A DNA stretch of 57,285 nt, the filler included, from Dirinaria sp. TL-2023a (taxonomy: Eukaryota), in assembly GCA_051941275.1 (NCBI GenBank). It is 2 parts of 2 records of this genome, joined end to end, with 100 filler letters (N's around TTAATTAATTAA, not from the genome) between each part and the next. Parts side by side here need not be neighbours in the genome. Positions count along the whole stretch, not along the records: positions 28,784 to 57,285 come from JAVEBF010000124.1; 1 more part is not named here. The stretch is one strand, 5' to 3'. The translations under genes were made by a program, and so were the position numbers. Positions 7,440 through 49,739 of this stretch are shown in pieces (the stretch's first letter is position 1; each line of letters opens with the position of its first letter). Below the pieces are notes generated by a model. The model made no database searches, had not been told where the DNA came from, and saw nothing but the letters and a program-made list of their open reading frames with translations.

Positions 7440-7975
7440 GACTTTGTCTCAGAAAACACCCTGTCGCGTGTCAGCACTCTGAAATTCGTTGAAGTCAAGC
7501 TCTGAACGAGCATTTCAAGATATGTTTGGTCCAACGTACATGAAGCTTTGTGATAATGATAGTCATGACATTGAGTAACTCAGCGTCCTGCGCATCCGAA
7601 GCGTTGCGATTGTAGTCAATCAAGACTGCATCTAGTAATGCGGCCGAAATGTTCACATTCACCATCTCGAGGTCATCGGCTTTTTGGACATATGTGTCGG
7701 TGAGCTTCAGAATTTCCTTCTTGATTGTCCTAAGACCGCGGACTTTGGGCATCTTTGTAGCGATTTGGCCTTCGATTTGATCAGCACGGGTGGAAAGAGA
7801 TAATTAGCGACAAGGCTTACCTTCTCGAGCTACGCTGTCCGATATCATCTGGCTTGTAGCTCGATACATCGAAAGCATATCGTGGTATATGCGATCAATC
7901 TGCGGATAGAAATAGCTCCCTATAGACGAACACGCAGCAACATTAGTCTTCATAATATTGTCGACCACCTTAAAA
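7440..7975 (-). pseudogene. CRM1: Exportin-1 (CRM1/XPO1) gene fragment, C-terminal HEAT region, copy 1
   Basis: Reads KVVDNIMKTNVAACSSIGSYFYPQIDRIYHDMLSMYRATSQMISDSVARE|GQIATKMPKVRGLRTIKKEILKL..LLDAVLIDYNRN..DAELLNVMT across a GT-AG intron at 7770-7820; matches fungal Crm1 as recalled; the rest of the gene is absent. Confidence 0.88.
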
Positions 7976-8737
7976 TTCTCTCAATCTCAGGGAGGACATG
8001 TATGTTGCTAGTTAAGAGGCTTGTAGAGGTCTCTGTGTAGAATGGTTCGGAGCCGTACCTTTGCAGAGCTATCACGAGGTAATAATCAGCGTCCTGCATG
8101 CAGACATTATCAACAAAGCGTTTCCCGGTAGAAACAGCCTCGCTGGATTAACCAGATCGGCCCTCTCACACGAATGTGAGTTTCCCTCACGAAAAATCTA
8201 GTGTTGTCAACCGAGTACAAAATGAGTCTTCCAAGCACATACCTTCTGTAAGCAGTTACCCGAGCTCAGCTAGCTCAGGTGGTACTTCAGAAAATAAAAT
8301 CGTTTGGGGTGAAAGGGGAATAAGTTTAGAGCCGGACCACCCACTGGGTGACCGGTTGAATTGCGTCAGCTGGACGAAGCGGCCAGTGATGCCCACTCAC
8401 AAATGTGAGAGGAGGATACTTGGCTCTACCGACAAGCAGTAGGTTCGTAGTCGGCACCACGTACAGGTGATCCCCATTGCCGGCCAAAAATAAAGCAGCG
8501 CATGGACGGTGCGCCACAGTAGGATGGAAAGGCAGCCACCAGTATTTCTTTCTTTCACCAGGATTTTCGATATCCTGCTTGAGGTCAGCATACTTCCTTC
8601 TTCTGGGGACTTTTCACTCAGCGATTAATTTCCACGTCAATCACACAGAGATGATCGTAAGGTCCAGAAGGTCACAGAAAAGAGCACTTCTGGTCTCTTG
8701 AGGGACAAAGTTGTAGACACAATCGCGGCTTTCGTGT

Positions 8738-8812
8738 CGGATAGAAATAGCTGCCTATAGACGAGCATGCAGCAACACTAGTTTTCATAATATTGCCGAC
8801 GACCTTGGTAGC
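8738..8812 (-). pseudogene. CRM1: CRM1 fragment, copy 2
   Basis: TKVVGNIMKTSVAACSSIGSYFYP; aligns at nucleotide level with 7903-7972. Confidence 0.8.
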
Positions 8813-9759
8813 CTCCCGATCTGAGGCAGATGTATTTTATCGATCTGTAAGCATCTCAGCGTCAGGTCACTATTTGTAGTAAAAGGAAAAACCAGATGTC
8901 TTTAGGATCTAAAGACCATTTGATCTGCTAGTCAGTTTCCATGCGGATGTGGATGGGAGCCAAACTTAAGATGCTGTCGAGATCAGCCTTCACAGCAGAA
9001 AGTTGCTTTACTGGATAAATCAGCCCGGAATCCGATCACACGAATGTAGCGTTGGGATATGATGTTTTACTCATCGTCCGACCGTCCGAAAAAGTCGCGA
9101 CGATGAATTTGAGAATACTTGGCTCTACTCCCAAGCAGTAGGTTCATGGCCGGCACCACGTACAGGGGGTCCTCATTGCCGGCCATCAAAGAATCTAGTA
9201 TAGTCAGGGTTCTGGAGTAGCTCATACCTCTAAGCAACTCAGCTCAGTGGTGGTTTAAGAAATAAAGAAGATAAGATAATAGAGTTCCAACTCGAGAAGG
9301 ACAAGGATAAGGAGGGGAAGGAGCGAAAGAAGGTGAAAGTGAGCAGGAGCGGGACCAAATACCTGTAGGCGTCTGGCGCTAACAGGGCTCGCTTAACCAG
9401 CGTGCCCTATCATCCAATAGGAGACTGGGGCACTCACATGTAATAATGCCGAGATTTGTCATGTGGGGACCTTCACACTGATGGGATCAACCAAACCTCA
9501 CAAGTGAATCTCACGGCGGTGGCACAGACTCACTTTCCAAGGAATCGAGTGGAGTTGTATCCCTAGAGACTCCGTTTATTCCCATATCTGTAGCGTGATC
9601 CTGATGCACGAGAAGGTGTTGTGTGTGGAGGATAAGTAAGTATTGAGGAATCTCGTGCCTTTAGATGGCGATTTGGTGGCGGTTTAACCTTCGGTTTGGT
9701 CAGCACCGGTAGAAGTGGATAAAAAGGCTCATCTTCTCGAGCCAACCTGTCTGATAGCA

Positions 9760-9860
9760 TATGTATGCAACCGATTTGTGGGTTGAAATAGCTTCCCATA
9801 AACGAGCATGCAGCAACATTAGCCATCATAATATTGCCGATGATCTTGACAGTCTCGATC
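9760..9860 (-). pseudogene. CRM1: CRM1 fragment, copy 3
   Basis: ETVKIIGNIMMANVAACSFMGSYFNPQIGCIH within ORF 9563-9925. Confidence 0.8.
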
Positions 9861-10703
9861 TGAGGCAGGACATGTATGTTGCTAGTCGCGTGGCACTCAT
9901 CCACACGAATGCGGAAGAGTGCCAATCTCAGAGCCGGTCAACCTTAGTCTTCACAGCAGAAGTTTGCCCTCACTGGATAAACCAGATCGGCACCCCATCT
10001 TCACGAATGTAGAATAGGGAAATATGATAGAATTTGATAAGCCGGCTGGCAAGGCCACGCCGGTAGACACCCGCCGACATAACATCGACAGGGGGTCCAG
10101 CCCATAAAAGGAGAAGGACGAAGAAGAAAAAGAAGGGAGAAAGGTGAGGCGGAGCAGAATTAAATACGTGGTGGCGCCTCGCGCTAAGCGAGCGCGCTTA
10201 GCTAGCTTGCCCTAAGGCATCATCCTCCAATTGAACATCGGGGCAATTGCATGTGCCATCGCCGATGGGAAAAGATTTGTTATATGTGGATCTTCACTGA
10301 TGGCATCAATGGACAGCTACCCACATCCCCCATCACGAGCCAGAAGTGAAACCCCTATCGAGCCAATTTTTGAGTAATCTCAGTGGCAGGTGTCCCTGAA
10401 CGTGGCAAATAGTGCAATAAACCGATTGGGATCCTGCTGGCGTAGAGTAGAGAACAAGTAACAGCTCAAAGCAGCCAATGCTGGACGTAGTTCACATATC
10501 GAAGACTTATCAGGCAATGCAGACATTTCTCAGGGCATGACCAGTGAACGAGATATAAAATTCTCACTTGATTTACACTAAATTGCTGTCCCTCTCTCCT
10601 CCCTTTCTCTAGATTGTCCAAGGGCTAAATCTACACAGAACTGCTTGTGGATAAAGGCAGTTAAATGTGCTACGCAAAGCAAATGATATGTAGCTGGTCA
10701 TGA

Positions 10704-14777: not shown

Positions 14778-16303
14778 CCTACTTTAACGATTTGTCTATT
14801 TGACGATGGCACGTTCGTGATCAGCATCGTCATCTCGTGAAATCATCGTTGCTTGAAACTCGCACTCTGTCAGAACATGAGAGAGTGATAGACTTAAGCC
14901 CGAAGAATCAAAGAGATCGAATAATGCATTATCAAGCGAGAATGAGTAGCAATTAGTAGGGAAGGGTGGTGTGCCAGTAGAGTAGGCTTAAATGAGCTTT
15001 TTCCTCTTCGGCTTTTCTGATCTCAGGTACAATGTGGTTCCCTACATGTACCTACCTTATTGCCAACATTTCATGTCGAATCATTGGCTGAACAGTTAGT
15101 AAGCAATTCCTAATTGAGAGCCTTGCATATGGCGGGAGGGAACCTCAAATCCTCGGCGATACAGTATCACCAGCACGTGGAAGATCAAGAGAAATATCGT
15201 TGGCCTTCTTGGACAATCAAGAGAGTGCTATTTTGACTTGTATCGTGTATAATTCACATGGATAACGAAGTGAACCCTGCTGCTGAGCCTACGTCTGCCC
15301 ATGGCTCCAATAATGCCCAGAAAGATGAGACACAGCGGTCCCAGGAGCCAGGTAGGCAATTCATTTCTGCTACGAAACAAAGAAAACCTCTGTACTGAAA
15401 CCTTAGCTAGCGCCAGGATTTTCGAAAGTGGCAACCAAGCTGTTCCAAGAGCTTGCGACAGTCGAGAAACTTGTCGAAATTGCCATCAAACCGTCAGCCC
15501 AGCCATTTGAGTACAGACGGTCGAATTTGGACCCATTGGCAGTTCACGCTGCCGAAAGAACTTTGAGGACGTTGCAGCTGATCAAGGAAACGCATGACGA
15601 AATCTCGCGAGGAGAACTCTTACTCATTGTCGAGGAGATAGTGGAGTTCAGGACCAGGGAACTGACTAGGCTTCTCAAGCTTTCAGCCCAGTTCGCGACC
15701 TGTGGTCATATTGACAAGGTGATCAATGAGATATTTTCGTTGTGCTAGTTCACGGAATCGCAAGCATGGTTCAAAGACTGGCGTAGATGACGTACTTTGA
15801 TATTGATTGCTATCAAATGTGTGAGCAGTCATTTCTGCGCCAGCAGGTTCTTTAATGATTGCGTTAGGCAATTATTATCGTCACATCACTCTACTCTATT
15901 GACACACCACCTTTCCTCACTGAATGCTGCTCATTCTCGCGTGATAATGCATTCGATCTCCGTTTTTTGATGTCTCGAGCTTTAAAAGTCTATCGATCTT
16001 CTTTTGCTCTGACAGAGTGCGAGTTTCAAGCAACGATGATTTCATGAGATGACGATGAACTGATTCACCACGAACGTACCATCGTCAAATAGGCAAATCG
16101 TTAAAGTAGGTTGAACGCGTTTAGGATTTGGGAGAGGTATTGATAGATGGCAAACAATAAGTGGGCAGGGCGGCGCGGGCAGCAAAGTGAAGGTGGTGTG
16201 GCAATAGAGTTACTAATTGGACAGCCAACAGTTCGGTAGGGAATGTTGGCAATAGGGAACCACATTATATGTCAGAAAAGCCGAAGAGGAGAAAGCTGAT
16301 TCA
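14778..16303. repeat. Long imperfect inverted repeats (two blocks) around a small gene
   Basis: Block A 14778-14985 is the reverse complement of 15891-16110; block B 14987-15102 is the reverse complement of 16209-16303; a further ~20-bp inverted pair at 15894-15913 / 16189-16208. No target-site duplication found. Confidence 0.85.
15301..15748 (+). CDS. Hypothetical ~130-aa helical protein (two exons) inside the inverted repeats
   Basis: Exon 1 15301-15351 (MAPIMPRKMRHSGPRSQ), phase-0 intron 15352-15406 (GTAGGC..TAG, weak branch point), exon 2 open to TAG at 15746-15748 with amphipathic helical composition. Confidence 0.5.
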
Positions 16304-28683: not shown

Positions 28684-28783
28684 NNNNNNNNNNNNNNNNN
28701 NNNNNNNNNNNNNNNNNNNNNNNNNNNTTAATTAATTAANNNNNNNNNNNNNNNNNNNNNNNNNNNNNNNNNNNNNNNNNNNN
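28684..28783. other. Artificial assembly linker / gap
   Basis: Exactly 44 N + TTAATTAATTAA (stops in all six frames) + 44 N = 100 nt. Confidence 0.95.
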
Positions 28784-29440: not shown

Positions 29441-29554
29441 TGAGAAGAAGTACCTGTAGGTACCTTAATGTGAGGTAGGTAGCTTAGTCATCTACAGACT
29501 TCCTGCACTTACTTAAAGTACCCCACATACGTCCCACAACCGAAGGCCGTAACC

Positions 29555-31568
29555 ATGGCTTCGCAAAACGAGCCAAACCTCCCTTCTCGGTCAAAGGATG
29601 AAGGCACTGCCCAAGCACCCAGTAAGAATGCCCTGAAAAAAGCTGCTAAAGAAAAGGAAAAGGCCGAGAAAGCAGCGAGACGGGCCGAGCAAGAGGCCCA
29701 AGAAAAGAAGAAACGTGAAGAAGACGATTCCGCCAAGCATCTCTACGGCATTCTGTCCCTCCCCACCGACTCTGCATCTGCCTCGTCCCATCAAATTTTC
29801 ACTGAGCTTGTCGACCTCTATTCCGCCCAAGAAAACCAGGAAGTCACCGTTGATGTCCGAGTCCACAACTCGCGCGCCCAAAGCGCCAAACTTGCCTTCC
29901 TCGTCCTCAGAGAAGAGGCGCATACAATCCAAGCCGTTATCGCGGAAGGAGGCGCCAATGCCATTTCTCGGCAAATGGTAAAGTGGTGCGGGGGCCTGAA
30001 TACTGAGTCTATCGTCCGAGTAACTGGACTGGTCAAACCCCCGAAGGAGCCGGTGATTTCGACAAGCATATCAAACAATGAATTGCATGTGGAGAAATGC
30101 TTTCTCATCTCTCAAGCCGATGCGCAACTGCCGATACAGGTCAAAGATTGCATGCGAGCGCCACCTATGGGCGATGAAGGTGCGGAGGGAGAGAAGGAAA
30201 TCGATGCACAAGGCACACCCATCGTATCGCTCTCGTCACGGCTGAACAATCGCGTGTTGGATGCGCGTACGGCGGCCAATTTAGCAATTTTCCAACTGCA
30301 GTCCGGTATAACGAATTTGTTCATAGAGTACATGAATAAGCATAACTTTACATGGATCCAGAGTTCCAGGATTGCGGGCGCCGCTACAGAAGGGGGCAGC
30401 GGGGTGTTTGAAATTAAATACTTTGATGGCAAAGCATATCTGACACAAAGCCCACAATTTTTCAAGCAAATGGCGATAGCAATGGACATGAAGAGAGTGT
30501 GCGAGGTTGGGCCGGTTTTCAGAGCAGAGAATTCGAATACGCATAGGCATTTGACTGAGGTAATACCCTCGTCCTCTTCTCGATTTTCACTATCATGTCT
30601 TAATCTCTGAGATTGGTTTTTTTTGAGTCAAAGTGATTGAGGGATAGAATACTGACGTATTTGATCAGTTCACAGGACTTGATTTCGAAATGGTCATCCG
30701 GAACCACTACCATGAAGTCCTGACCTTTTCTGAGAAATTAATGATTTTCATCATCAGAGCGCTCCAGACACGAGAGCAGTACATTCGACTGACCAAGGTT
30801 GTCGAGCAAGTCTTCCCTGGCGCTGAGAATTTTAAGCTTCCACCTGGCGATGATGCTGTTCGGATAACGTTCGCTCAGGCGGTCAAGATGCTGAAGGAAG
30901 CGGGCGTGGAGGCCAGCGAGATGGAGGATCTGAGGTATGACTCCAAGTCGCGATCTGCTCTCACGTGGCAGCATTGGCCATGCCAAACGCACCCTTCATC
31001 CTCTAATTCCATACATGTCTATCAAAGCTATCTACATTTACCTCTTAAATCTATCGTTCAGGTCACAATAGTTACACCGCCTTCCCCAAACCGTCTATTC
31101 CCCCTTTGATAATTTCAACTTCGCCTCACTTCTTTTGTGCTAACCTACCACACTAGCACCGCACAAGAACGAGCTCTTGGCAAAATTATGTCCGAAAAAC
31201 ATGCCACTGACTTTTACACCATTGACAAATACCCTCGGCATGTCCGCCCCTTCTACACACATCCCGACCCAGCGAACCCTTCGCTCTCCAACTCCTACGA
31301 CTTCTTCATGCGCGGCCAAGAAATCATGTCCGGCGCCCAGCGTATTCACGACTACAACATGCTGTGTGAGAATATGAGGAAGAACGATCCGCCATTGGAC
31401 CCCTTGAGTGAGGGTTTCAAACATTACACCGACACTTTCAGGTATGGCTGCGCGCCGCATGGTGGAGGTGGATTGGGTCTGAATCGAATTTGTCAATTTT
31501 ATCTGGGACTCCCGGACATCAGGTTCTCGACGCTGTTCCCTCGAGACCCGGGGAGGTTGGCACCGTGA
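29555..31568 (+). CDS. Cytosolic-type aspartyl-tRNA synthetase (Dps1-like)
   Basis: Lys-rich N-extension [12 protein letters not shown]-fold ([13 protein letters not shown]), [15 protein letters not shown], motif 2 [19 protein letters not shown], motif 3 [14 protein letters not shown]. Introns 30560-30668 and 30935-31156. Confidence 0.93.
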
Positions 31569-34194: not shown

Positions 34195-36759
34195 AACCTA
34201 CCTCATCCTTGGATGGCACAAGAGGCTGTAAGTTCACATCCTTAGATGAAGCTTGACGTTACGTGCCACTTACTGATCAAGGAAGCGTGCCGCTTGCCCA
34301 AAAGTCAGCAGCCGAAGCTTGAGATAGGAGAAATTTGCACGATGAAATCCATCTATTGAACATGACCCTGGGGAAAAGGAATGGTCATGCACTATCCTAC
34401 GAGATTCTACGAACGTATGGCCTTCACTTTAATGCAACATCAGAAGTCGCAATTGATACATGATCCGACGCTTTCCAAGAGCTGTACATTCACCGCGCCC
34501 TTTACTCTGAGGCTTCTCTTGAGGGGTCTGTTTCCAACCTTTTGTTGGCCAAATAAGACACTGTGAGCTATCTAAACAAGGCATCCTGTGCGCTGAAAGA
34601 CCATTGAAAGCTTATAATTATAATACTTGACTTTGTACCCTTTTACCTGCTAATCGTTCTTAGAAAGGTTCCTACATCAAACAGGCTCTCCACTGGAAGG
34701 AGCGTTGTATCTCCCGTGAAGCTGAACAAACCTGTACGCTTCATGAATCGAATGCCGTGGAATTGACTTTTAATCTATTACATTGCCAACACGTTCGGTA
34801 TCCTAGCCGACAAAGACTGCGACGATTATATTGCGTTGACAGAGGGTCCAAGACTTGACTTGATCCTTATTCTGGGTATCTTTTCTCCATCTCTTATGAA
34901 TCTCTGCGGCCAAAATATAGGGCTCCTGTTTGTTTGAATCGGTTCACTTGTGATTCTTAGGTTATGCCTGCACCAAGAGTCAGATACCGAATATTGCAGT
35001 CAATACTGAATTGGAAAAACAAGCTACTCACCGAGCATACTCGCTGTACAGGCTCTTGCCGAACTCGATCCCAGCAACTAGCACATTCGAAGGCTCAAAC
35101 AGCATAGCATAGGGGAGCTTCTTCGAAAGAAATGAGCTTAAACAAGGCAAATTTCCAAACAGCCATGAAGAAGAGTATAGACAGTTCAATGAAAGACTTT
35201 TCCAAGATGAGCCAAAGGCAGACTTTCCATCTCCTTGTTCATGAATGACAAAGTGACTGAGTGATGGTGATCATAACAACACATGACGCTACCCAGTGGT
35301 TAATCTCGCTTCGCGTTAGTGCCTTGGCATGGCTGATAAATTCCACCCTTAGCACTCTCACTCTCATTTTCACTCCCTGCTACCAATTTTTATGATCTTG
35401 TACTTGATTTCGAGGTCATGTCATTTCTACAGAGTCTATACAAGACGCTTCTATGGTCCAGACCCACCCCATCGCTCGCAGTACCGACGGGATGATAGAC
35501 CGACCTGTATAATCCAGCAAGAAGCCACAAGTCAGGATCACAGAGCGAAGAAAGGGCGGTGAGTGTGACATCAACGCGATCTTTGATGTGTGGGACAGAC
35601 ACATCGAAGCCCAAGTACATCGCAGCGGTTACCTGTTCATACTAACGGCTTACAGTCTTCCGGCTTTTGATTCAGGAGAATGGAGCCCAAGCATATGGCA
35701 GCGGCCCTTTTCTCATATTCTACCTTTCAAATCTTCCGACTTTTGATACAGTAAGGAGAACTGAAGTGCGAGCATATCGTGGCGGCTGCCTCGTACTAAC
35801 CTACACAGTCTTCCGGCTTTTGATACACTCAGGAGAATGCAAGTGCCCATCATTCAGAGATGAAAGAAACCGCAGCTTCCTGGAATGCGAATTGAAGTCC
35901 CGGAGAGTAACTACACGACGGCTCTTCGACACCGCATCTGTCGATGATTTCAGCAATCCAAAGAAATGTTACCGAGTCAGATCTACTCACCCCAAAGCTC
36001 TGAGATGCATCGACAATGCTCAGTTTGCCCAGCTGTCTGACTGTTTTCGATTCCAAAGCACCTAAAATGGCAACATACGCAGAATCAGAGCAAATCGAGA
36101 CTGAACTGCCCGCTTCCATCATCAAAATCACCACAATGTCTCCTTCGCATGGCTTTACGGAAACAGAATAATGTATTGGCCTTGGTGTTCAAGGCACCAA
36201 AGCCTCACCTTAGCAGCCATCTCGATCAATGCGATCTCCTCGTTAGCTACATCTCTACTGTCTCCTTACAACGCTATCTGGATCGACGAGATATTTACGG
36301 TTAGGTCGTTGAATACCTACACATGAAAAGCCTCACTACCGCCTCGCCACCTCACTCTATTGACACAACACCCTTCTCACTATTCATTCCAACGGTCAAT
36401 GCATCCAACCTTTGATGCCTTCCGTTCAAGCATATCCATCTTTCTGCTCCTACAAGGTTCGAGTTCCAAGCAAAGAAGGTTTCACGAAGTGACCATGGGC
36501 TATTTCACCACGACCTCACCATCGTCAGTTCAGCAGATCGTTAAAGGTTAAAGAGTTTAGGGAAAGAAAAAAGGTGCTTCTACAATAAACCATCCTCTCG
36601 ACATGAATACGTCCAACTTTAGTTCGCTCTCTCACTATATACTTCACCCGTCCTCCTCACCGCTTCGATTTCAGCTCTGCTTTCATCAAAAGCATAGCAA
36701 TAACCACGACTTATTCAAGACAGTAGACAATACAGAAAGCTAATCGATGGAACCCAAGA

Positions 36760-39700
36760 CTCTTCAATAACAGTGACTACTTACGGAAATCGATCTAATC
36801 TAACGATAATGTCGACAAAATGCTGAAGAAACGAGTCTCAGATGAGACATCAGTCGAGATTCGTGCTTCTTTCGCAAGCTCGACAGCTCTTGCAAATCTC
36901 TTGATATTCGGCTATTCAGTTTCAAAAGACAATCTTTTCTTCGACTTTTCGTCAATGGACAAAGAATATCGAGTGGAACAAGACGCTTTAAGAGCAAGAA
37001 CTAGGAAAACTGATTCAATCGAATAACGATGTGAAAATTACTCAGACAAAACAAAATTCAGACATCTGGGTCGACTTCTTTTTTCAAACTCGATAGCAGT
37101 TGCTATAAAAAGCGAAATGATACTGTTCTTATTATTCTGAGACTCTTTGCTTATTATCACTGCGACAATTGAAATGATCCATCGACAACCAAATTCAAAA
37201 GACGATCTTTTACTTTTTGGCAAAGAACATCGTGTGGAAACTGTTTAATAAGAAGAATCGATCTTATTAAACGACAATGTCGAAAATTACTCGAACAAAT
37301 CAAAATTCAGACATTCGAGTCGACGTCTTTTTTCCAAGTTCAACAGCTGCTGTTAACAGTGAAAGGATTCTGTTCTTATTTTTTTTAAATCTTTATCATC
37401 ACTGATGAGAATGCATTCACTAACACTTCGAGTTCTTTGATCAATTTCAATAGACGATATTTCTTCGATTTTTCGTCAAAGAATATCGAGTGAAATAACA
37501 CGCTTTATCGACCAAACTCAAGATACTCGAACAGCAGAAATCAGAAGTTACGAGAATCGATATTATTCAACGACAGTGGTCGAAAACTACTCGGACAGAC
37601 TCAGAGATTTCAGATCTCGAAGTCGATATCTTTTTTCAAGCTCAACAGCTGTTGTTAAAAGTGAAATGATATTGTTCTTATTATTTTCAAATCTTTATTA
37701 TCACTGAAGTTAATGCATTCACTGACACTTCGAATCCTTGGACAATTGATTTCAAAAGCCATCGCTGTTTTACTTTTGACAAAGGACATCGAGTGGAATA
37801 AAACGTCTATCGTACAAAACAGCAAAAACAGAAAACTCGTCGTTGGAACTCAGTCATTTCGAAACTCTGTCATTACTGACGATGACATTTCAACTTCTTC
37901 GCCGAGACTTAATTTCGAAATTTAATTTTTCATCGACAATAAAAAACAAAGAACATCTAGTGGAACAGAAGTTACAGAACTCTTAATCGACAACGAAAAT
38001 AAGAAAAAGCTAGCTTCTACAACGTTAAAGCAGCAGAGACGGCGAAAATCGATTGAACGAAGAACCTGACGAAGATCTAAAGAAATAACTTTTAGATGAG
38101 ACATCAGTCGAGATTCGTGTCTCTTTCCGCAATTCCGATAGCTCTTGCGATTGATGATAAAATCACAATCAGATCCCAGGATGCTCGAATAGCAAATTCC
38201 ACCGGAACCGATCTGCTTTAACGAAAATATCGACGAAAGTCTCACTAGTCTAAGCTTTGACACTAGAGTGTGTACTCTTTTCGCAAGCTTAGCAGCTGCT
38301 GCTGTGCACAGTGGCCAGTGGAACGATATTGCTCTTGGAATTTTCAAACTTTTACTATTATTGAAACTATGAAAATCGAGTCCTTCGATAATTATCAAAG
38401 AAAATCCAGTGGAACAAAACGCTTTAAAAACAGCCAAGCATATTCGAAAAACAAATCGACGAAATTCAAGATTTTAAGATGCTCGAGCAGTCAAGATTAC
38501 GGGAATCGATCTTTTGACGATAATGCGAAAAATTACTCAGATAAATCGAAACTCAGAAATTCGAGTCGACGTCTTTTTCTCGAGGACTAAGGTCAGCAGC
38601 TGCTGTTAACAACATGATGATATTATTTTTATTATTTTTCGAACTTTCACCATTACTGAAACTGGAAAAATCGAAAAAACGATCCTCTTTTTTTTTTTTT
38701 TACTTTTACGAAGCAAAGAATATCCAGTAGAAACTGTGAAATAAAATGCAGATGGTATACAACGAAGAATTCAGAAAGCTAACGAACAAATTTCAAGATG
38801 CTCCAGCAGCAGAGATCAAGAGAAACGATTTTTAACGATACTTTTCGCGAAACTGTGAAGAAATGAGTCCAAGCTTAGGTCACCCTGGGATCTGTGCGAT
38901 TGTTCCCTTTCCGCAAGCTCGACAGCTGCTGTTGTTTACAGTAAAATGATATTACTTTTGTCATTTCTCAACTTCTACCAGCACTGAAGCTAACGCGTTC
39001 ACTATTGCGTTTCCAGCTCTTCAGTTCGATAATCAGCTTTCAAAGACGATCTTCGTCACAATTTTATCCTCTGAAACTAGTCTTGGTCCTTGGACAAATA
39101 GTTTACGCGCTCTAAATAAAAATCAATCCATCCTCAAAGAAAAGTCGAAAAGACAATCTTTCTTCGACTTTTCCAAAGCAAAGAAGATCCAGTGGAAACT
39201 GTGGAATAAAACGCAGATGATAGACAACGAAGAATACAGAAAACTCAACAATAAAATCCCAGATGCTAGAACAGCAAATTTCACTGGATTCGATCTTATC
39301 TGTCGAAAATATCGAAAATTACTCGAACAAATCAAAGTTCAGACATTCGCGAGGTCGTGGGTTTTCCTACGAAGTCGGCAGCTGCTGTTGTTAACAGTGA
39401 AATGATATTGCTCTTGGAATTTTCAAACTTTTACTATCGTTGAAACTGAAAATATCAAATTTTTTCAAAACGATTTCAAAAGCAATCGTTCTTCGACTTC
39501 TCCAGCAAAGAAAATCGAGTGGAACAAAACCCATATCGTCCAAAACAAAAAGGGTTCAGAAAACTAACGAACGAAATTCAAAATGCTTAACCAGCAAAGA
39601 TCAAGAAAATCACGAATTCACGAGAATACGTTGGGCATCGCTGGAAAATGTGGATCTTTTTGTCCAAGATCGACAGCTGTTGCTATTAAAAGTAGAATAA

Positions 39701-41100
39701 AATTACCCTTGTTATTTTCAATCTTTTACTACCATTGAACATGGAAAAATCGAGTCCTTCGATAATCAGCTTTAAAGACAATCGTTCTTCGGCTTCTCCA
39801 GCAAAGATATCGAGTGGAACAAAACGTTCAAGACAGGAAATTCAGAAATTCAGAAAATTGATCAATAAAATTTTAAGATTTTGAACCAGCAAAGGTCAAG
39901 GAAATCACGATTAAACGAGAATACGTTGGGCATCGCTGGGAAATATGATATCCTTTTCCCAAGGTCAGCAGCTGCTGTTGTTAAGGATAAAATGATATTG
40001 CTCTTGCAATTTTCAAACTTCTAACCATCGTTTAAATTGGAAATATCGAGCTCTTTGTTGATCATCAAAGAAAATCGAGTGGAACAACACTTGTAATCGA
40101 CAACGAGAATTACAGAATGTTATTCGATGGGACTCAAGACACTTTTATGACTTTGTCCTTGTCATTTTCAAACTTCCATTATCATTGAAATTACGTACTC
40201 ACTATGTACGACGGGATCTTCGAGAATCGATTTCAAAAGACAATTTTTATTCGATCTTTTAGCAACGAAGATCCAGTGGAACAAAACGTTTAGAAAATAG
40301 CGAATGGTATACAAAGCTAGCTTTTGAGATGCTCTAACAGCAGAGACTACGGGAATCGATTTAACGGAAAACTTGCCGAATGTCTAAAAACATGAGTCTC
40401 GGATAAAGTATCGAGCTCGATGCTACTTTTACAAGCTTAGTAGCTCTGGCGATCTACGATAAACTGACATTTATCAAGTCATTTTAATTCTTTATTATTA
40501 ATAACGAGGACCATTCAGTTTCTTCGATAATGAAAATCAAAGAAAATCGAGTGAAATACGGCGCTCAATCGATAAAGAAGAATAAAGAAGTCAATTCAAA
40601 ATGCTCGAACAGCAGAGACTACGAGAGTCGATCTTATCCAACGGAAGCTTGAAAAATAAGTCTAAGCTTAGACACATGGATCTGAGCTCTTTTTTCAATT
40701 TCGATAGCTCTTGAGATTTATAAATTCTTCAACAATCAATCTCAAAAGCAATCGTTCTTCGACTTCTCCAACAAAGATATCGAGCGAAACAAAACCCATA
40801 TCGTCCAAGACAAAAAGAGTACAGAAAACTAACGAACGAATTTCAACATGCTTAACCAGCAAAGGTCAAGAAAATCACGATTTCACGAGAATACGTTGAG
40901 CACCGCTGGGAAATGTGGATCTTTTTGTCCAAGGTCCTCAGCTATTGTTGTTAACAGTGAAAAAATATCGCTCTCCCGATTTTCAAACTTTTCCCTCCCT
41001 TGGAACTATAAAGATCGAGCCCTTCGATAATCTTCTTTAAAAGACGATTCTCGCCACACCTTTATCCTCTGGAACTGGAACTAACCTCCAACAATCATCT
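36760..41100. repeat. Degenerate tandem array, sub-array A (~15 units, typically ~170-330 bp)
   Basis: Landmark ATC(G/C)AGTGGAA at about 36971, 37232, 37488, 37791, 37958, 38407, 38725, 39190, 39517, 39812, 40077, 40274, 40549 and 40782, with recurring GATGCTCGAACAGCAG, GAATCGAT, CAGCTG..GTTAACAGTGAAATGATATT and ATTTTCAAACTTT motifs; near-identical blocks from 39481 and 40748. Confidence 0.9.
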
Positions 41101-43790
41101 TATGAGCTCTTATTAAAACCCGAGCTATTTGCAAAACAAAGACGAAAAATTACTTAATTCTAAAACTACAACCAAAATATCATATTCTCCAAAGCCAAAA
41201 CGAATTGAGACGTCGACAGACACTTTATACGGCTCTCATTTGAGAAGAATTAACTCGCGTCACAATTTTATTCTTCGAACTATCCTCGAATCAATTCATC
41301 GAGAGAGTCTAGATTACAAGCGAATTTATTCTCAAAGAAAAGTTCAAGAGTTACTTAATTTTAATGTGCTTCAAAAACCTCACATTCTCGAAGACCAAAA
41401 CGAATTGGGACGTCGATAAATACTCTATATCACTTTCTTATAGCGATACATTATCCATTTCGAACCCTTCGATAATAGGCTTCAAAAAACAGTTCTCGTC
41501 ATATTTACTTTCTTGAAATGAATCTCGAATATTCGAAATCGATCTTGGTCCTTGGACAATCATATCGAGATACTCAATTGCAAGAGAATTCATTCTCAAG
41601 CAAAGACAAAAGAATTATTTACTCATGATCTGCTTCAAAAACCTCATATTCTCAGAAGTCAAAACGAAAGAGATATCGAATTCATGAATCGATAACACGA
41701 TGAGAGTTTCTAAAATTTTAAAAGACAGTTTTTGCCACGCTTTTGTTCTCTGGAATCGACCTTGGTTCTTGAACAATAATCTTGACAGTTTCAATTCCAA
41801 GAGAATTCATTTCAAATCAAGAACGATAGAGTCACTTTCTCATACTCTACTTCAAAAACCTCACATTCTCAAAAATCAAAACGCATTGAGATGCCGAGTT
41901 CTCTCTTTCAAGAATCAATAAATAGACAACTCTATTCGCTAAAAGACTATAACAGCGCTGTTCAGTGATGAATCGAGGACGAAAAAGATGCTCTTCAACA
42001 TCGATCACTAAACACGTTATCTTTTTTCCAACGTCAACGCGAGCATCTGTGAGGATATACAACGAGATGAGATTATTCTAGTTATTTTCAGACTTTTGTT
42101 ATCATTCATGATGATAAATTCAGCTTCTTGGATAAGAAGTTGAGAAAGAACATTCTTTCTTCGACTTTTTCGATCTGGAATTGAGCTTGTTAAAACTCAA
42201 GTCATTCGCAAAGACGAAGAGTTATTTACTCGTACTCTACTTCAAAAATCTCACATTCTTCAAAACTAAAACGAACTAGATGGGGTTGTTTCTATTCTTT
42301 TTAAGCTTTTGCTATCATTCATGACGACAATCCAGTCTCTTCGATAATCAGTCACGAAAAAAAATCCTTCTTCGACTTTTTCGATCTCAAGTTACCAACT
42401 ATTCTTTAACAACTAGGCTACGAGTTTTAACCAAAACTCAACACAATCGAAAGACGAGACGCTATTTGATCATAATCTGCGACAAGAACCTCACATTCTC
42501 AGAAATCAAAACGAATAAAATGAGAGCACGCGAGTCTCAATTTGAGAATTTACGAAAAGAAAATCTTCCGTCCGTTTTTTCGATCTGGAATTGATCTTGT
42601 TAAAAGCAAATTCATTCTCAAACAAAAATGAAAGAGTTATTTACTCATACTCTAGTTCAAAAATCTCACATTCTCCAAAACTAAAACGAATAAGATAAGA
42701 GCACGCGCGATGTGCGAGTCTCAATTTGATAACTCGTCAAAAGACAAACTTCCTTCGATTTTTCCGAGCTGGAACTATCGATTGATCTTTAACAAATAGA
42801 TTGCAAGCTTTAATCAAAACTCAACACAATCGAAAGACGAGGCGCTAATTGATCATAATCTGTCACAAGAATCCCACATTCTCAAGAGCTAAAACGAGAT
42901 GTGCGAGTCTCAATTTGAGAATTCGTCAAAAGACAAACTTCCGTCCGCTTTTTCCACCTGGAATTGACCTTGTCAAAAGAAAAGTCATTCGCAAAGACGG
43001 AAAGAAACTTAATCGTGACGTACGACTACAAGCTCTACGTTCTAGAGAGCTAAGATGAGCTGAACGTGAACTCACACATCTCAATTCGAGGATTTATGAA
43101 AAGACAATCAGACCGAGGGTCGTTTTCAATTCGCAAACACTCAGAAGAACGCTATGCGAACGCGTGTTTAAAACTCCACGTTCTCAAGAGCTGAAAGAAT
43201 AAAAAATCGACATGTAAGATGTGCGAGTCTGAATTTGAGAAAATTTATCAAAAGAAAATCTTTCTACAGCTTTTCTCACATGAAATGACCTTGAACAATA
43301 AGATTCAGAGCCATTTTTCATTTGTCAAAACGAAGGGCCATTCAATCATAATCTGCGACAAGAATCTCACATTCTTCAAAGCTGAAACGAATGAAATGTG
43401 AGAACTTACGCTATGCGAGTCTTGATTTGAGAACTCGTCAAAAGACAATCTTTATTTCGCTTTTTCCACCTGGAATTGGCCTTGAAAAATTAGACCGAGA
43501 GCCATGCTTTATTCGCAAAGCACTCAGGAGAACGCTATGCGAACGCGTAGCTTAGCTATAATCTCAAAAACTGAAATGAGTGAGACGTCAGCTCACACAG
43601 TGTGCGAATTTCAATTTGAGAATTTGTCAAAAGAAAATCTTTCCACAGCTTTTTTCATCCGAAACTGGTCTTGAAAAATCAGATCGAGAATCACGCTTGA
43701 TTTGCAAGCTCAGAAGAACGCTATGCGAAAGCGTGGCTTGGACTATGTCCTCAAGAGCTGAAATTAAATGGGTGTGACGTGAGCACAAAC
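41100..43790. repeat. Degenerate tandem array, sub-array B (~12 units, typically ~140-260 bp)
   Basis: Landmark AA(C/T)CTCACATTCTC at about 41381, 41645, 41862, 42252, 42492, 42667, 42875, 43036, 43177 and 43368, with GCGAGTCTCAATTTGAGAATT, AAAAGACAA and CTGGAATTGA motifs. Confidence 0.88.
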
Positions 43791-44751
43791 GGTGAAACAA
43801 GGTCATGGAAGAGTTCGTTATTCGATAATGCCGATATCGTTCTTTTAAAAACTCATCAACCGGAGACTTAAAAGATCCTGCGCCAGACATCCTCAACTTA
43901 CAGAAATCACCTTCGATAGAGTTACAACCTAATTGTTCAGATTGACACAGCGCGGAAGTCTTACAATCTTAATCTTCTTCTGCACCGATAACATTCAAGA
44001 TTGAGCGAGTTCTTTAAGATCTGCATTCGTCGGTCGATGTCTGAGAGCGATGATAATTGATAGCGGATGTCGACGATCGAGCAGTTAAAAGAAAGAGCTT
44101 CATAACCGCTCCGCGCAGTGTGCCATCATAAACCTCGCTCTACGTGTATCATCATATCCCTCAGATTCATTAGGATCGTGGCGCTGATCAAAAATGTACA
44201 GCGCGAGTATAGTCTAGCGGTAATTCTTCCTGTGTCATGTTTATCTCGATAGATATTTAATATGCTCAACCATTCAATGGCTGCCGAGCACTGAAACAAA
44301 ATTCAAGTTCGACGAGCTTACTACATGAATCTCTTTGTGATCGGTCTCGGAGATGTTTAGTGTAGAGAGAGCATGTGCAGCCTTTTTCGTTCTCCACTTT
44401 GAAACCGTCTCTTGTTGGAGGTATTTACAGTCGATTAACTAGAGAATACTCTACGAATAAAGTCCACCTCTATTGCGGAATGTTTAGTGACCCGCCTGCA
44501 TAGGCAAGTCTAGTGCTTTCGGTCGTTATTGCTACCTGTTCGAGCTCGTAGGTTATCATTTCGACGGACCGTTTTCCTGGTATGCTTTCTGAGCTTTCAT
44601 GTATCGCGAGCGCTGGAGGCCGCCCGTGGTAGACGCGGCTGCTGCGAGTACCTGTTCCTCCCAAGCATCTGTTGAATAACCTGCACCCTGTGCGTGCATC
44701 CTGAACCTGATATTAATGATATTGTATATTGTCATGATTTCAGAGCCGAGC

Positions 44752-48791: not shown

Positions 48792-49739
48792 TTATGCGGG
48801 ACACTTGCTACAGACCTCGAACTCGCCACTCGTATCAGTCTCGCTGCAAATATCAAACGGCACCTGCGCCTCTGAGCAAAGATATGCACAACACTTGCTC
48901 GCCGGCGTCGGACATGCTGCAGCGCTGGACCTCGAGCAAGTCGACGTAGGTGTGGGAGTCGATGTCGTCTTCGTCGTCTTCGTCGTCAATGTATTCCCAG
49001 CAGGGCATTTGTTGCACACCTCGAACTTGCCGCTGGTATCGGTCTCGCTGCAAATAGCGAAGGGCACCTGGGCCTCGGAGCAGAGGTAGGCGCAGCATTT
49101 ATTCGGTGGGGTTGGGCAAGCCGAGGCGCTGACTCTTGCGCATGTCGACGCTGATGTAGGAGTAGATGTCGTTGTAGTGGTTGTTGTCGTTGTGGTTTCA
49201 GTTGGGCATTTGTTGCATACCTCGAACTCGCCGCTGGTGTCGGTCTCGCTGCAGATATCAAAGGGCACTTGAGCCTCAGAGCAGAGGTAGGCGCAGCATT
49301 TGTTCGGTGGGGTTGGGCACGCTGAAGCGCTGGATCTGGCGCAAGTTGAGGGCGTGAGGGTCGATGCTGTTGAGGTTGTCGTCTTCGTAGGTGAAGGGGT
49401 AGTGAGACAGCTGCATGCGCTTGAGATCCTCTGTTGTACCGTGTTGTTTATTAATCAAGAAGGAAAGAATATAGATATAAGGCTAGTACTTACGGTGTTC
49501 CCGCATGTGGCGATGGGGCTTGGAGCTTGCTTAGTCCTTTAGACAATGTTTAGTAGACTTCACAGGAAGCGGGATGGGAGGAAGCCCCACGAGGTAGCTA
49601 AGTACTCGCTGCAGAAGGCGGAGGACGTAGAGGACTGATAGCGGACGAGAGCGCGGTAGCAGTTATCATGGTTGCACTTGGCCGCCAGGGCTACCGTCAC
49701 AGAAGCCGCGAGTGTTGTGATTACCTGAGTGAAGCGCAT
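48792..49739 (-). CDS. Secreted protein (~276 aa) with three tandem 8-Cys modules and Thr-rich linkers
   Basis: Exons 49739-49591, 49536-49494 and 49430-48792; signal peptide MRFTQVITTLAASVTVALA; N-terminal CNHDNCYRAL..FC..RISSACSC module; three near-identical C-X7-C-X6-CC-X3-C-X9-C-X11-C-X2-C repeats. Confidence 0.88.

Follow-up and report, generated by a model that had tools for sequence, protein, structure and literature searches.

A CpC context bias among C-to-T substitutions is real in the DNA analysed here (a window of 57,285 nucleotides from Dirinaria sp. TL-2023a, made of two parts joined end to end) and is restricted, within this window, to repeats and an adjoining ~600 bp. In the tandem array that carries it, the bias is too weak to count as hypermutation. 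The evidence base is one window with two loci.

Organization of the array

Positions 36714-43780 were occupied by a non-coding, degenerate tandem array of ~7 kb in a single orientation, flanked by two convergent genes whose 3' ends face it. Unit length was 180-300 bp, with most units 60-80% alike. Two unit families were distinguished. The first part (F1, 36714..41049, + strand) was AT-rich and non-coding, with units of ~245-300 bp that were 60-88% alike; iterated nhmmer searches yielded 21 matches, all on the + strand, and TRF reported a period of 295 at 39374-40020, inside this part. The second (G, 41023..43780, + strand) was composed of units of ~180-210 bp. Its nhmmer profile recovered 13 full units, together with partial matches of an F1-shared module inside F1, and 18 of 18 G matches lay on the + strand. 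The module common to both families spans ~50 bp and carries two TCGA sites.

Coding potential was rejected: the ORFs were short and non-repetitive, Rfam and tRNA searches of the array gave 0 matches each, and the two longest ORFs matched nothing in Pfam except for a sub-threshold PIN_11 match. With head-to-tail units, one orientation and no coding or RNA-family signal, the array is satellite-like. An exact-pattern scan of metagenome contigs for one array-unit motif gave 0 matches.

Composition

The initial annotation had described the array as poor in CC/GG and rich in TCGA, and both descriptions held. The CC/GG odds ratio was 0.55-0.56 in the array versus 0.94-0.95 in the flanks, TCGA occurred 111-115 times versus ~25 (24.9) expected, and CCGG only twice versus 8.5 expected. 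The array was also rich in TC/GA and CpG and poor in TpA (odds 0.50-0.52). Per kb, CC+GG fell to 36 versus 112 elsewhere and TC+GA rose to 172 versus 140, while CG (46 versus 52) and TA (50.5 versus 48) were both unchanged. YCGR tetramers numbered 18.1 per kb versus 14.3 elsewhere, and TCGA made up 87% of them versus 36%. A change of CC to TC with CpG and TpA left untouched would account for an AT-rich and CC-poor composition that is at once rich in CpG, TCGA and TC/GA and poor in TpA.

The CpC index, (CC+GG)/(TC+GA), is the CpC-type index of RIPCAL, and its (CpC+GpG)/(TpC+GpA) form is defined in a passage of PMC2621366. In the array it was lowered to 0.21 (21 windows, 0.10-0.39), compared with 152 background windows in which the median was 0.78 and the lowest value 0.35. 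Classical RIP indices were negative in the array, with TpA/ApT at 0.61-0.62 and (CpA+TpG)/(ApC+GpT) at 1.18-1.19, as anticipated by the earlier claim that TpA-based indices would miss the signal.

When decay of the window's own non-ORF DNA was simulated, the best fit gave weights of 1 to CpC, 0.5 to CpT, and 0 to both CpA and CpG (SSE 0.16). Poorer fits came from models with CpA only (SSE 3.2, TA 1.52), CpA equal to CpT (1.4) and all contexts equal (0.99). The simulated TCGA excess (2.9x) stayed below the observed one (4.7x), and substitution-based CpA rates were 0.06-0.07, whereas the composition fit calls for zero.

Substitution context among array copies

The proposed non-canonical CpC>TpC (GG>GA) preference was recovered among array copies in tree-based counts for both unit families, parsimony being noisy on copies that are 60-75% alike. 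The CpC>TpC rate was 0.115 in F1 and 0.178 in G, with other contexts at 0.05-0.08, corresponding to 2.3-3.3x other C>T changes. In the pooled data, 38 of 257 CpC sites had changed versus 188 of 2979 other Cs (OR 2.6, p=5e-6). Likewise, MAFFT alignments gave 41/233 versus 198/2926 (OR 2.9, p=1e-7), with rates of 0.159 (F1) and 0.196 (G). CpC ranked first, CpT (second-best) and CpA were intermediate and CpG was lowest. The ratio of transitions to transversions was 41:8 at CpC versus 198:162 at other Cs (MAFFT). A context-free null simulation produced a ratio of 1.0 (sd 0.26); the observed values of 1.80 and 2.82 were reached in 1/200 and 0/200 runs, respectively. The excess appeared at consensus-C sites (0.143-0.167) as well as at minority-C sites (0.140-0.189), and was present on both strands (24/154 and 11/93). 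Protection by a 5' C was seen with HMM alignments (5/245) and was weaker with MAFFT (12/232).

In raw counts over array HSPs, CpA- and CpT-type differences outnumbered CpC-type ones. With no more than 2 CpC sites in the F1 consensus, the consensus-based raw-count test lacked power. Pairwise C-site divergence (0.56-0.61 at CpC) was disregarded, since the rarity of CC confounds it. Relic C at consensus TpC sites (43/464) was not in excess compared with other T contexts (0.09-0.13); CC depletion therefore predates the present units. A UV-type explanation based on 5' pyrimidine context was rejected, as the rate did not rise with a 5' T or C, and CCG-specific targeting was rejected as well, [C]CG (0.14-0.15) being no higher than [C]CT (0.22-0.26).

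These rates bear on the idea that the composition was inherited or selected: an ancestral unit of short TCGA/TTC/GAA modules (e.g. protein-binding sites) would have been amplified, and the pattern in the twin blocks (see below) would be small-number chance. The TCGA-bearing module shared by F1 and G, the scarcity of CpC already present in the F1 consensus and the low C>T rate at CpG are all in its favour. It is nevertheless very unlikely, as it cannot account for rate biases that recur in both families with either aligner. Moreover, transversions at CpG were not reduced (34/553 in F1, the highest among C contexts), thus TCGA is not under general constraint; TCGA was no commoner than its trinucleotides predict (111 versus 102), and a repeat-free flank carries the same signature.

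Strength and tempo of the bias

The term hypermutation, used in the initial annotation, did not survive. Ts/Tv among copies was 1.1-1.5 (60 array HSPs gave 1.17, the 21 best HSPs 1.46, and trees 1.05-1.4, with counts of 295:274 and 215:156 in the two families), and CpC changes made up 38 of 510 inferred transitions (7%). A part of Amselem et al. 2015 (PMC4352252) gives Ti/Tv>2 as a working RIP criterion; array copies stayed below this value, except at their CpC sites. Present rates imply an equilibrium GC of 0.39-0.40. The observed 0.37, versus 0.49 elsewhere, does make the array AT-rich, while these rates point to equilibrium rather than to ongoing net decay. CpC events formed the same share of terminal (22/142) and internal (13/77) branches.

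The youngest duplicate pair of the array, twin blocks A (39454..39776, + strand) and B (40719..41041, + strand), was its least depleted part, with CpC indices of 0.38 and 0.42, respectively. In blastn they were 82.4% identical across 324 bp, rising to 88.4% in the best 216 bp. The earlier count of transitions by eye was correct: in columns 38-236 of the alignment, which comprise 198 aligned positions and 1 gap column, 7 of 10 were of the G[G]/G[A] or [C]C/[T]C type (39522, 39553, 39600, 39634, 39638, 39645 and 39669). The other three were an A[G]C/A[A]C, a CpG/TpG and an A[A]A/A[G]A change, and the TG/TA change at 39679 fell just outside these columns. Since the [Y]C class represented 22.8% of transition opportunities in this core, 7/10 corresponds to a binomial p=0.002, before correction for post-hoc choice of context. 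The same core also holds 7 transversions in its 198 columns, omitted from the initial annotation, so that Ts/Tv was 1.4 (10:7); the whole 324-bp HSP displayed 29 transitions and 27 transversions. All six polarised GC>AT transitions of the pair were G>A on one strand.

Repeats and unique DNA outside the array

Two inverted-repeat arms shared the depletion. Arm L (14778..14985, - strand) contained 10 CC+GG versus 37 TC+GA (index 0.27) and arm R (15891..16110, + strand) 8 versus 41 (index 0.20); the 905-bp spacer and outer flanks were not depleted (143 versus 204, p=4e-5). As L and R are copies of each other, their depletion may be one event. Their Ts/Tv was 23:10. A third, diverged copy of the arm sequence, X (36338..36560, + strand), adjoins the left array edge and is normal in CC/GG (24 versus 33); its local alignment score was 68 versus a shuffle maximum of 15. 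No inverted X copy bounded the array on the right (score 11-16, with shuffled sequences reaching up to 14). Where X has CpC, T stood in L and R in 12 of 40 cells, a frequency not above that at CpT sites (17/49).

A CRM1_C Pfam match (7495-7803, - strand, E=1.9e-26) is accompanied by three partial tandem copies (7888..10023, + strand) in which both GC and the CpC index (0.77) are normal. [Y]C transitions among them reached 23/89 versus 28/281 in other contexts (overlapping pairs), and their three-way core displayed only 2 CpC singletons at 5 sites versus 10 at 41 other C sites. The CRM1 and inverted-repeat examples cited in the initial annotation are present in the sequence as quoted, but in such small sets CpC was not clearly ahead of CpT or CpG. 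A 201-bp tandem was not depleted either (index 0.86).

It had been proposed that an equal CpC bias in unique sequence would point to a general mutation bias. Within the window, unique non-coding DNA lacked the signature: ~14 kb of non-ORF unique DNA displayed CC odds of 0.91 and a CpC index of 0.66. The left array boundary was sharp, lying within ~150 bp of the CC-normal X copy. On the right, 43781..44400 contained no recognisable repeat unit (no significant match to either unit HMM, best E 0.49) and still carried the signature (CpC index 0.30, GC 0.43). Depletion was therefore confined to duplicated DNA and this flank within the window, although the CRM1 fragments and the 201-bp tandem escaped it. 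In 53 loci of other fungi (647 kb), no window combined a low index with TCGA richness; these loci were found with a neighbouring gene's protein at <=65% identity, too distant for orthologous comparison, and provide a composition background only. Among named sequences, the best matches were ~80% identical and scattered across Leotiomycetes, Lecanoromycetes and Dothideomycetes, a placement no narrower than Pezizomycotina.

This distribution weighs on the possibility that targeting plays no part, CpC>TpC being the general neighbour-dependent spectrum of the fungus, visible only in an unconstrained satellite that drifted to a neutral AT-rich equilibrium. The array is indeed at its own equilibrium, the bias is mild and clock-like in appearance, and [Y]C transitions are also more frequent among the CRM1-fragment copies, whose GC is normal. 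Yet the explanation appears unlikely in view of the absence of CC depletion from unique DNA, the contrast between depleted inverted-repeat arms and their normal spacer and flanks, the sharp left boundary, and the few CpC singletons in the CRM1 core.

Origin of the bias

We infer repeat targeting because the signature was absent from the ~14 kb of unique non-coding DNA. Array copies would differ mostly through ordinary mixed substitutions, on which a long-acting C-to-T bias dependent on the neighbouring base would be superposed, favouring the 5' C of CpC, which on the opposite strand reads as G-to-A following a G. Over a long time such a bias would strip CC/GG and build TC/GA, leaving absolute numbers of CpG and TpA untouched. 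Since the signature is limited to repeats and ~600 bp beside them, the most likely cause would be a process that modifies cytosines and is directed at repeats or at their chromatin, either RIP-like or methylation followed by deamination; it would act slowly or weakly and not as a hypermutation burst. We give this reading, of a neighbour-dependent bias acting long on the array with a slow or weak RIP-like or methylation-deamination cause, an even chance of being right. The more specific proposal of a repeat-directed C-to-T defence (RIP or a RIP/MIP hybrid), with an enzyme that would target the 5' C of CpC first and CpT second and avoid CpG, is tentative and rather unlikely.

RIP proper, i.e. 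a premeiotic and homology-directed process with a RID/DIM-2-type enzyme preferring CpC, would have struck the array and the inverted-repeat arms in bursts later masked by divergence. It would fit an AT-rich island that is sharply bounded and coincides with repeats, the dependence on the 3' neighbour with both strands affected, the leakage-like signature of the right flank, the 7/10 CpC-type transitions and one-strand G>A polarity of the youngest pair, and the Ts/Tv of the L and R arms. In addition, passages of PMC4352252 and PMC2621366 put CpA, CpT and CpG variants on record, so the context can differ between lineages. Nevertheless, we regard it as improbable: Ts/Tv was only 1.1-1.5 among array copies and 10:7 even in the youngest pair, CpC accounted for a small share of transitions that was equal on terminal and internal branches, units are short and mostly 60-80% alike, and GC>AT and AT>GC rates imply that equilibrium is already reached.

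Comparison with known systems

In Neurospora, CpC is the least-favoured RIP context. Canonical RIP (Neurospora crassa, CpA>TpA) resembles the present case by its AT-rich repeats with sharp borders, 3'-neighbour dependence, action on both strands and possible leakage. It differs in that the array is TpA-depleted (odds 0.50-0.52, TpA/ApT 0.61), CpA is not its top context and a CpA-only decay model fails; moreover, canonical RIP is strongly transition-dominated, in contrast to the array Ti/Tv of 1.1-1.5.

APOBEC3G deaminates the 3' C of CC (GG>AG). Such editing shares with the array a CC target and a G>A product on the opposite strand, whereas in the array it is the 5' C that changes (GG>GA), on both strands and in a fungal host.

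Among non-CpA RIP-like signatures, passages of PMC4352252 and PMC2621366 mention CpT in Botrytis, Sclerotinia and Magnaporthe, and CpG or TpCpG in Tuber, Aspergillus nidulans MATE, Microbotryum and rusts; the preferred dinucleotide varies by lineage and is linked there to Dnmt1 subclasses. CpT-type systems are reminiscent of the array, where CpT was the second-best context, while CpG-type systems are its opposite, CpG being the least-mutated context. With MIP-type or heterochromatin methylation followed by 5mC deamination (Ascobolus, Tuber), a slow, clock-like and repeat-limited C>T drift would be compatible with a bias this modest and with the equilibrium state, but the methylation-driven signatures reported in the relevant part of PMC4352252 are CpG-centred. 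CpC as top context was not reported in the covered passages of PMC4352252 ('CpC' occurring 0 times) or of PMC2621366 (only as a formal index), and a literature search of titles and abstract openings, with passages of PMC2621366, PMC4014442 and PMC4352252, found no CpC-dominant RIP. The array pattern is reminiscent of a fungal defence that mutates repeats, with a target preference that is unreported.

Significance

Should the bias prove genome-wide instead, it would be an ordinary neighbour effect of modest interest. RIP surveys across Ascomycota use TpA/ApT-type indices together with CpA, CpT and CpG signatures, which a CpC-centred, repeat-limited process would escape; since a CpC preference is invisible to TpA-based indices, lineages scored as 'RIP-free' may carry a CpC-type defence. 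Even if the cause is not RIP, dinucleotide 'conservation laws' (CpG and TpA unchanged, CC turned into TC) can diagnose context-specific decay where classical indices fail. A CpC-centred process would, furthermore, give a handle on the target specificity of RID/DIM-2-type enzymes.

Locus and repeat array

All results are for a single window, whose gene content was fungal (a Fung_rhodopsin-domain gene, MFS sugar transporters, an aspartyl-tRNA-synthetase-like gene, F-box and WSC proteins). The best named relatives of its sugar transporter were about 80% identical and scattered across several Pezizomycotina classes. Identity between the aspartyl-tRNA-synthetase-like ORF (29483-30610) and the longer fused proteins recovered (HAD-like or DUF2156 fusions from Aspergillus and elsewhere) did not exceed 57%, and the ORF may be a diverged paralogue, e.g. 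an ergosteryl-aspartate-synthase-type gene. Just upstream of it lie two 44-N runs of the joining filler (28684-28727 and 28740-28783).

GC content was 0.45-0.56 except at 36-44 kb, where it was 0.35-0.39. There, flanked by the 3' ends of two convergent genes, lies a degenerate tandem array (36714-43780), every detected unit of which is on the plus strand. Its units form two families: F1, of about 245-300 bp (36714-42383, plus strand; 21 hits of an iterated nhmmer profile), and G, of about 180-210 bp (41023-43780, plus strand; 13 full units with a second nhmmer profile). Both contain a module of about 50 bp, the G profile giving partial matches inside F1. TRF picked up the best-preserved part alone (39374-40020, period 295), and ORF, Pfam, Rfam and tRNA searches of the array yielded no coding, Rfam or tRNA signal. 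Another tandem repeat (48796-49388; 201 bp, 2.6 copies, 79% matches) occurred in GC-rich DNA, overlapping long ORFs on both strands; it had no Pfam match and a normal CpC index ((CC+GG)/(TC+GA), PMC2621366) of 0.86.

Composition of the array

The initial annotation described the array as poor in CC/GG and rich in TCGA, and both traits were recovered. Symmetrised odds ratios in array and flanks were 0.55 vs 0.94 for CC/GG, 1.47 vs 1.12 for GA/TC, 1.38 vs 0.88 for CG and 0.52 vs 0.74 for TA. Per kb, CC+GG went from 112 elsewhere to 36 in the array and TC+GA from 140 to 172, while CpG (46 in the array vs 52) and TpA (50.5 vs 48) were unchanged. TCGA was observed 111-115 times (about 25 expected) and CCGG once or twice, the former matching its trinucleotide expectation (111 vs 102). 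YCGR density was similar in the array and elsewhere (18.1 vs 14.3 per kb) while the TCGA share rose (87% vs 36%), as conversion of CCGG-class sites, the origin proposed for TCGA, would give. Classical RIP indices were negative (TpA/ApT 0.61, substrate index 1.19); TpA-based measures do, as anticipated, miss this array.

Decay was simulated by taking the window's own non-ORF DNA (GC 0.457) to array GC under 75 context weightings. The best fit (SSE 0.16) gave weights of 1 to CpC, 0.5 to CpT and 0 to CpA and CpG, and predicted CC 0.51, CG 1.41, GA 1.35 and TA 0.60. Poorer fits were obtained with all contexts equal (0.99), CpA=CpT (1.4) and CpA only (3.2, with TA 1.52); starting from the flanks led to a similar outcome. 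The best model misfits in two respects: TCGA excess was 4.7x instead of the predicted 2.9x, and the substitution-based CpA rate was above zero.

Context of C>T changes

The twin blocks (39454-39776 and 40719-41041, plus strand) are the most similar pair (82% identity across 324 bp, rising to 88% in the best 216 bp). The seven GG/GA or CC/TC changes initially counted by eye were found again, as seven of the ten transitions in 198 well-aligned columns; such sites make up 22.8% of transition opportunities (binomial p=0.002, with no correction for having chosen the context post hoc). The same columns hold seven transversions left out of that count; across the full 324-bp match, transitions number 29 and transversions 27. 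All six GC>AT transitions that were polarised between the two blocks were G>A on the plus strand. Within the array, CC depletion was weakest in the youngest duplicate pair and its nearest relative (39454-41041; index 0.36-0.42 vs an array median of 0.20).

Raw pairwise counts over 60 array HSPs did not single out CpC: C/T differences per opportunity were 0.203 before A, 0.167 before C, 0.139 before T and 0.120 before G. Since TpC sites are so numerous that they swamp the raw class before C, and the scarcity of CC confounds a per-C normalisation, trees of 14 F1 and 13 G units were used to infer changes by parsimony (F1 counts shift slightly with tie-breaking). C>T per branch-site at the first C of CC reached 14/122 in F1 and 24/135 in G, the remaining contexts ranging from 0.049 to 0.079. 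Pooled, this amounts to 38/257 at CpC vs 188/2979 at other Cs (OR 2.6, p=5e-6). The reverse change, TpC to CpC, was the slowest T>C (54/1672 vs 230/4652, p=0.003). A context-free null on the same trees gave a ratio of 1.0 (sd 0.26); the observed 1.80 was reached in 1/200 runs and 2.82 in 0/200. Independent MAFFT alignments gave 41/233 at CpC vs 198/2926 elsewhere (OR 2.9, p=1e-7), with Ts:Tv of 41:8 and 198:162, respectively. The excess was present at consensus-C sites and, separately, at minority-C sites, whatever the 5' neighbour (0.13-0.19), and on either strand. The preference of C>T for CpC, central to the initial annotation, is statistically sound in the array. The 3' C of CC may be protected, a tentative result because the effect was strong with HMM alignments (5/245 changed) and weak with MAFFT (12/232).

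CpG was the least-mutated context for C>T, yet CpG transversions were not reduced, and TCGA is therefore under no general constraint. The F1 consensus was already CC-poor (2 CpC sites), and its TpC sites displayed no excess of relic Cs. That the array's composition was inherited or selected appears very unlikely.

Association with repeated DNA

The CpC index of the array was 0.21 (21 windows, 0.10-0.39), against a median of 0.78 and a minimum of 0.35 in 152 background windows, the lowest of which overlaps an inverted-repeat arm. Unique non-ORF DNA (about 14 kb of the window) had CC odds of 0.91 and an index of 0.66. The left border of the array was sharp; the 620 bp right of the last recognisable unit had an index of 0.30, matching neither unit HMM.

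The inverted arms L (14778-14985) and R (15891-16110), of about 210-220 bp and 82% alike, surround a 905-bp spacer with a small ORF-like stretch. A diverged third copy, X (36338-36560), about 70% alike to them, lies directly left of the array; a search of the array's right end for an inverted counterpart was negative. A terminal-repeat element, or duplication of a regulatory block, could account for these copies. L and R were depleted (18 CC+GG vs 78 TC+GA) relative to spacer and flanks (143 vs 204, p=4e-5), and X was not (24 vs 33, p=0.003).

Within the window, the CpC signature is limited to repeated DNA. Several observations nevertheless speak against targeting. At the CpC sites of X, L and R carry T in 12/40 cells vs 17/49 at CpT, and 5/23 L-R transitions fell at CpC; depletion of both arms may be a single event, since they share ancestry. 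Copies of the CRM1 fragment and the 201-bp repeat were not depleted. An untargeted neighbour effect acting across the whole genome is judged unlikely.

The same change had also been noticed in the CRM1 copies, and transitions before C were indeed in excess there (23/89 vs 28/281, overlapping pairs), but the three-way core was too small to tell. The isolated CRM1_C fragment (7495-7803, minus strand; Pfam E=1.9e-26, profile positions 26-111 of 323) adjoins three partial tandem copies (7888-10023), about 80% alike and without a long ORF. The whole region (7495-10023) resembles part of an exportin-1 gene that was duplicated locally and has decayed.

Nature of the process

The term "RIP-like hypermutation" exceeded the evidence. 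By the customary standard this is not hypermutation: Ts/Tv was 1.17-1.46 in pairs and 1.05-1.4 on trees, whereas the working criterion in the accessible text of Amselem et al. 2015 (PMC4352252) is Ti/Tv>2. CpC events accounted for 38/510 inferred transitions and were equally frequent on internal and terminal branches. From the rates of transition in the two directions (GC>AT and AT>GC), an equilibrium GC of 0.39-0.40 is expected, near the 0.37 observed. The picture is one of mild bias over a long time rather than a recent burst.

Sections available from the RIPCAL paper (PMC2621366) treat CpC>TpC as only one of four formal possibilities, the dominant contexts being CpA, or CpG with CpA. Likewise, the accessible text of Amselem et al. 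(PMC4352252) describes CpA, CpT and CpG signatures with CpC unmentioned, and that of a Rhizoctonia paper (PMC4014442) a CpG bias. CpC-dominant RIP was not reported in the titles and abstract openings found. In 647 kb from 53 loci of other fungi, an index below 0.35 was encountered in a single AT-rich island, at a contig end of a distantly related fungus and present in two overlapping loci (L008 8501-10750, L009 18251-20500). With GC of 0.22-0.28 and CC/GG nearly absent, it is a canonical-looking RIP relic; its TpA/ApT of about 1 and lack of TCGA set it apart from the array signature and make it a useful contrast. RIP proper with a CpC preference, for which the substitution context would speak and the low Ts/Tv would not, seems improbable here. 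A slow C>T process aimed at repeats or heterochromatin is the reading to which we give about an even chance.
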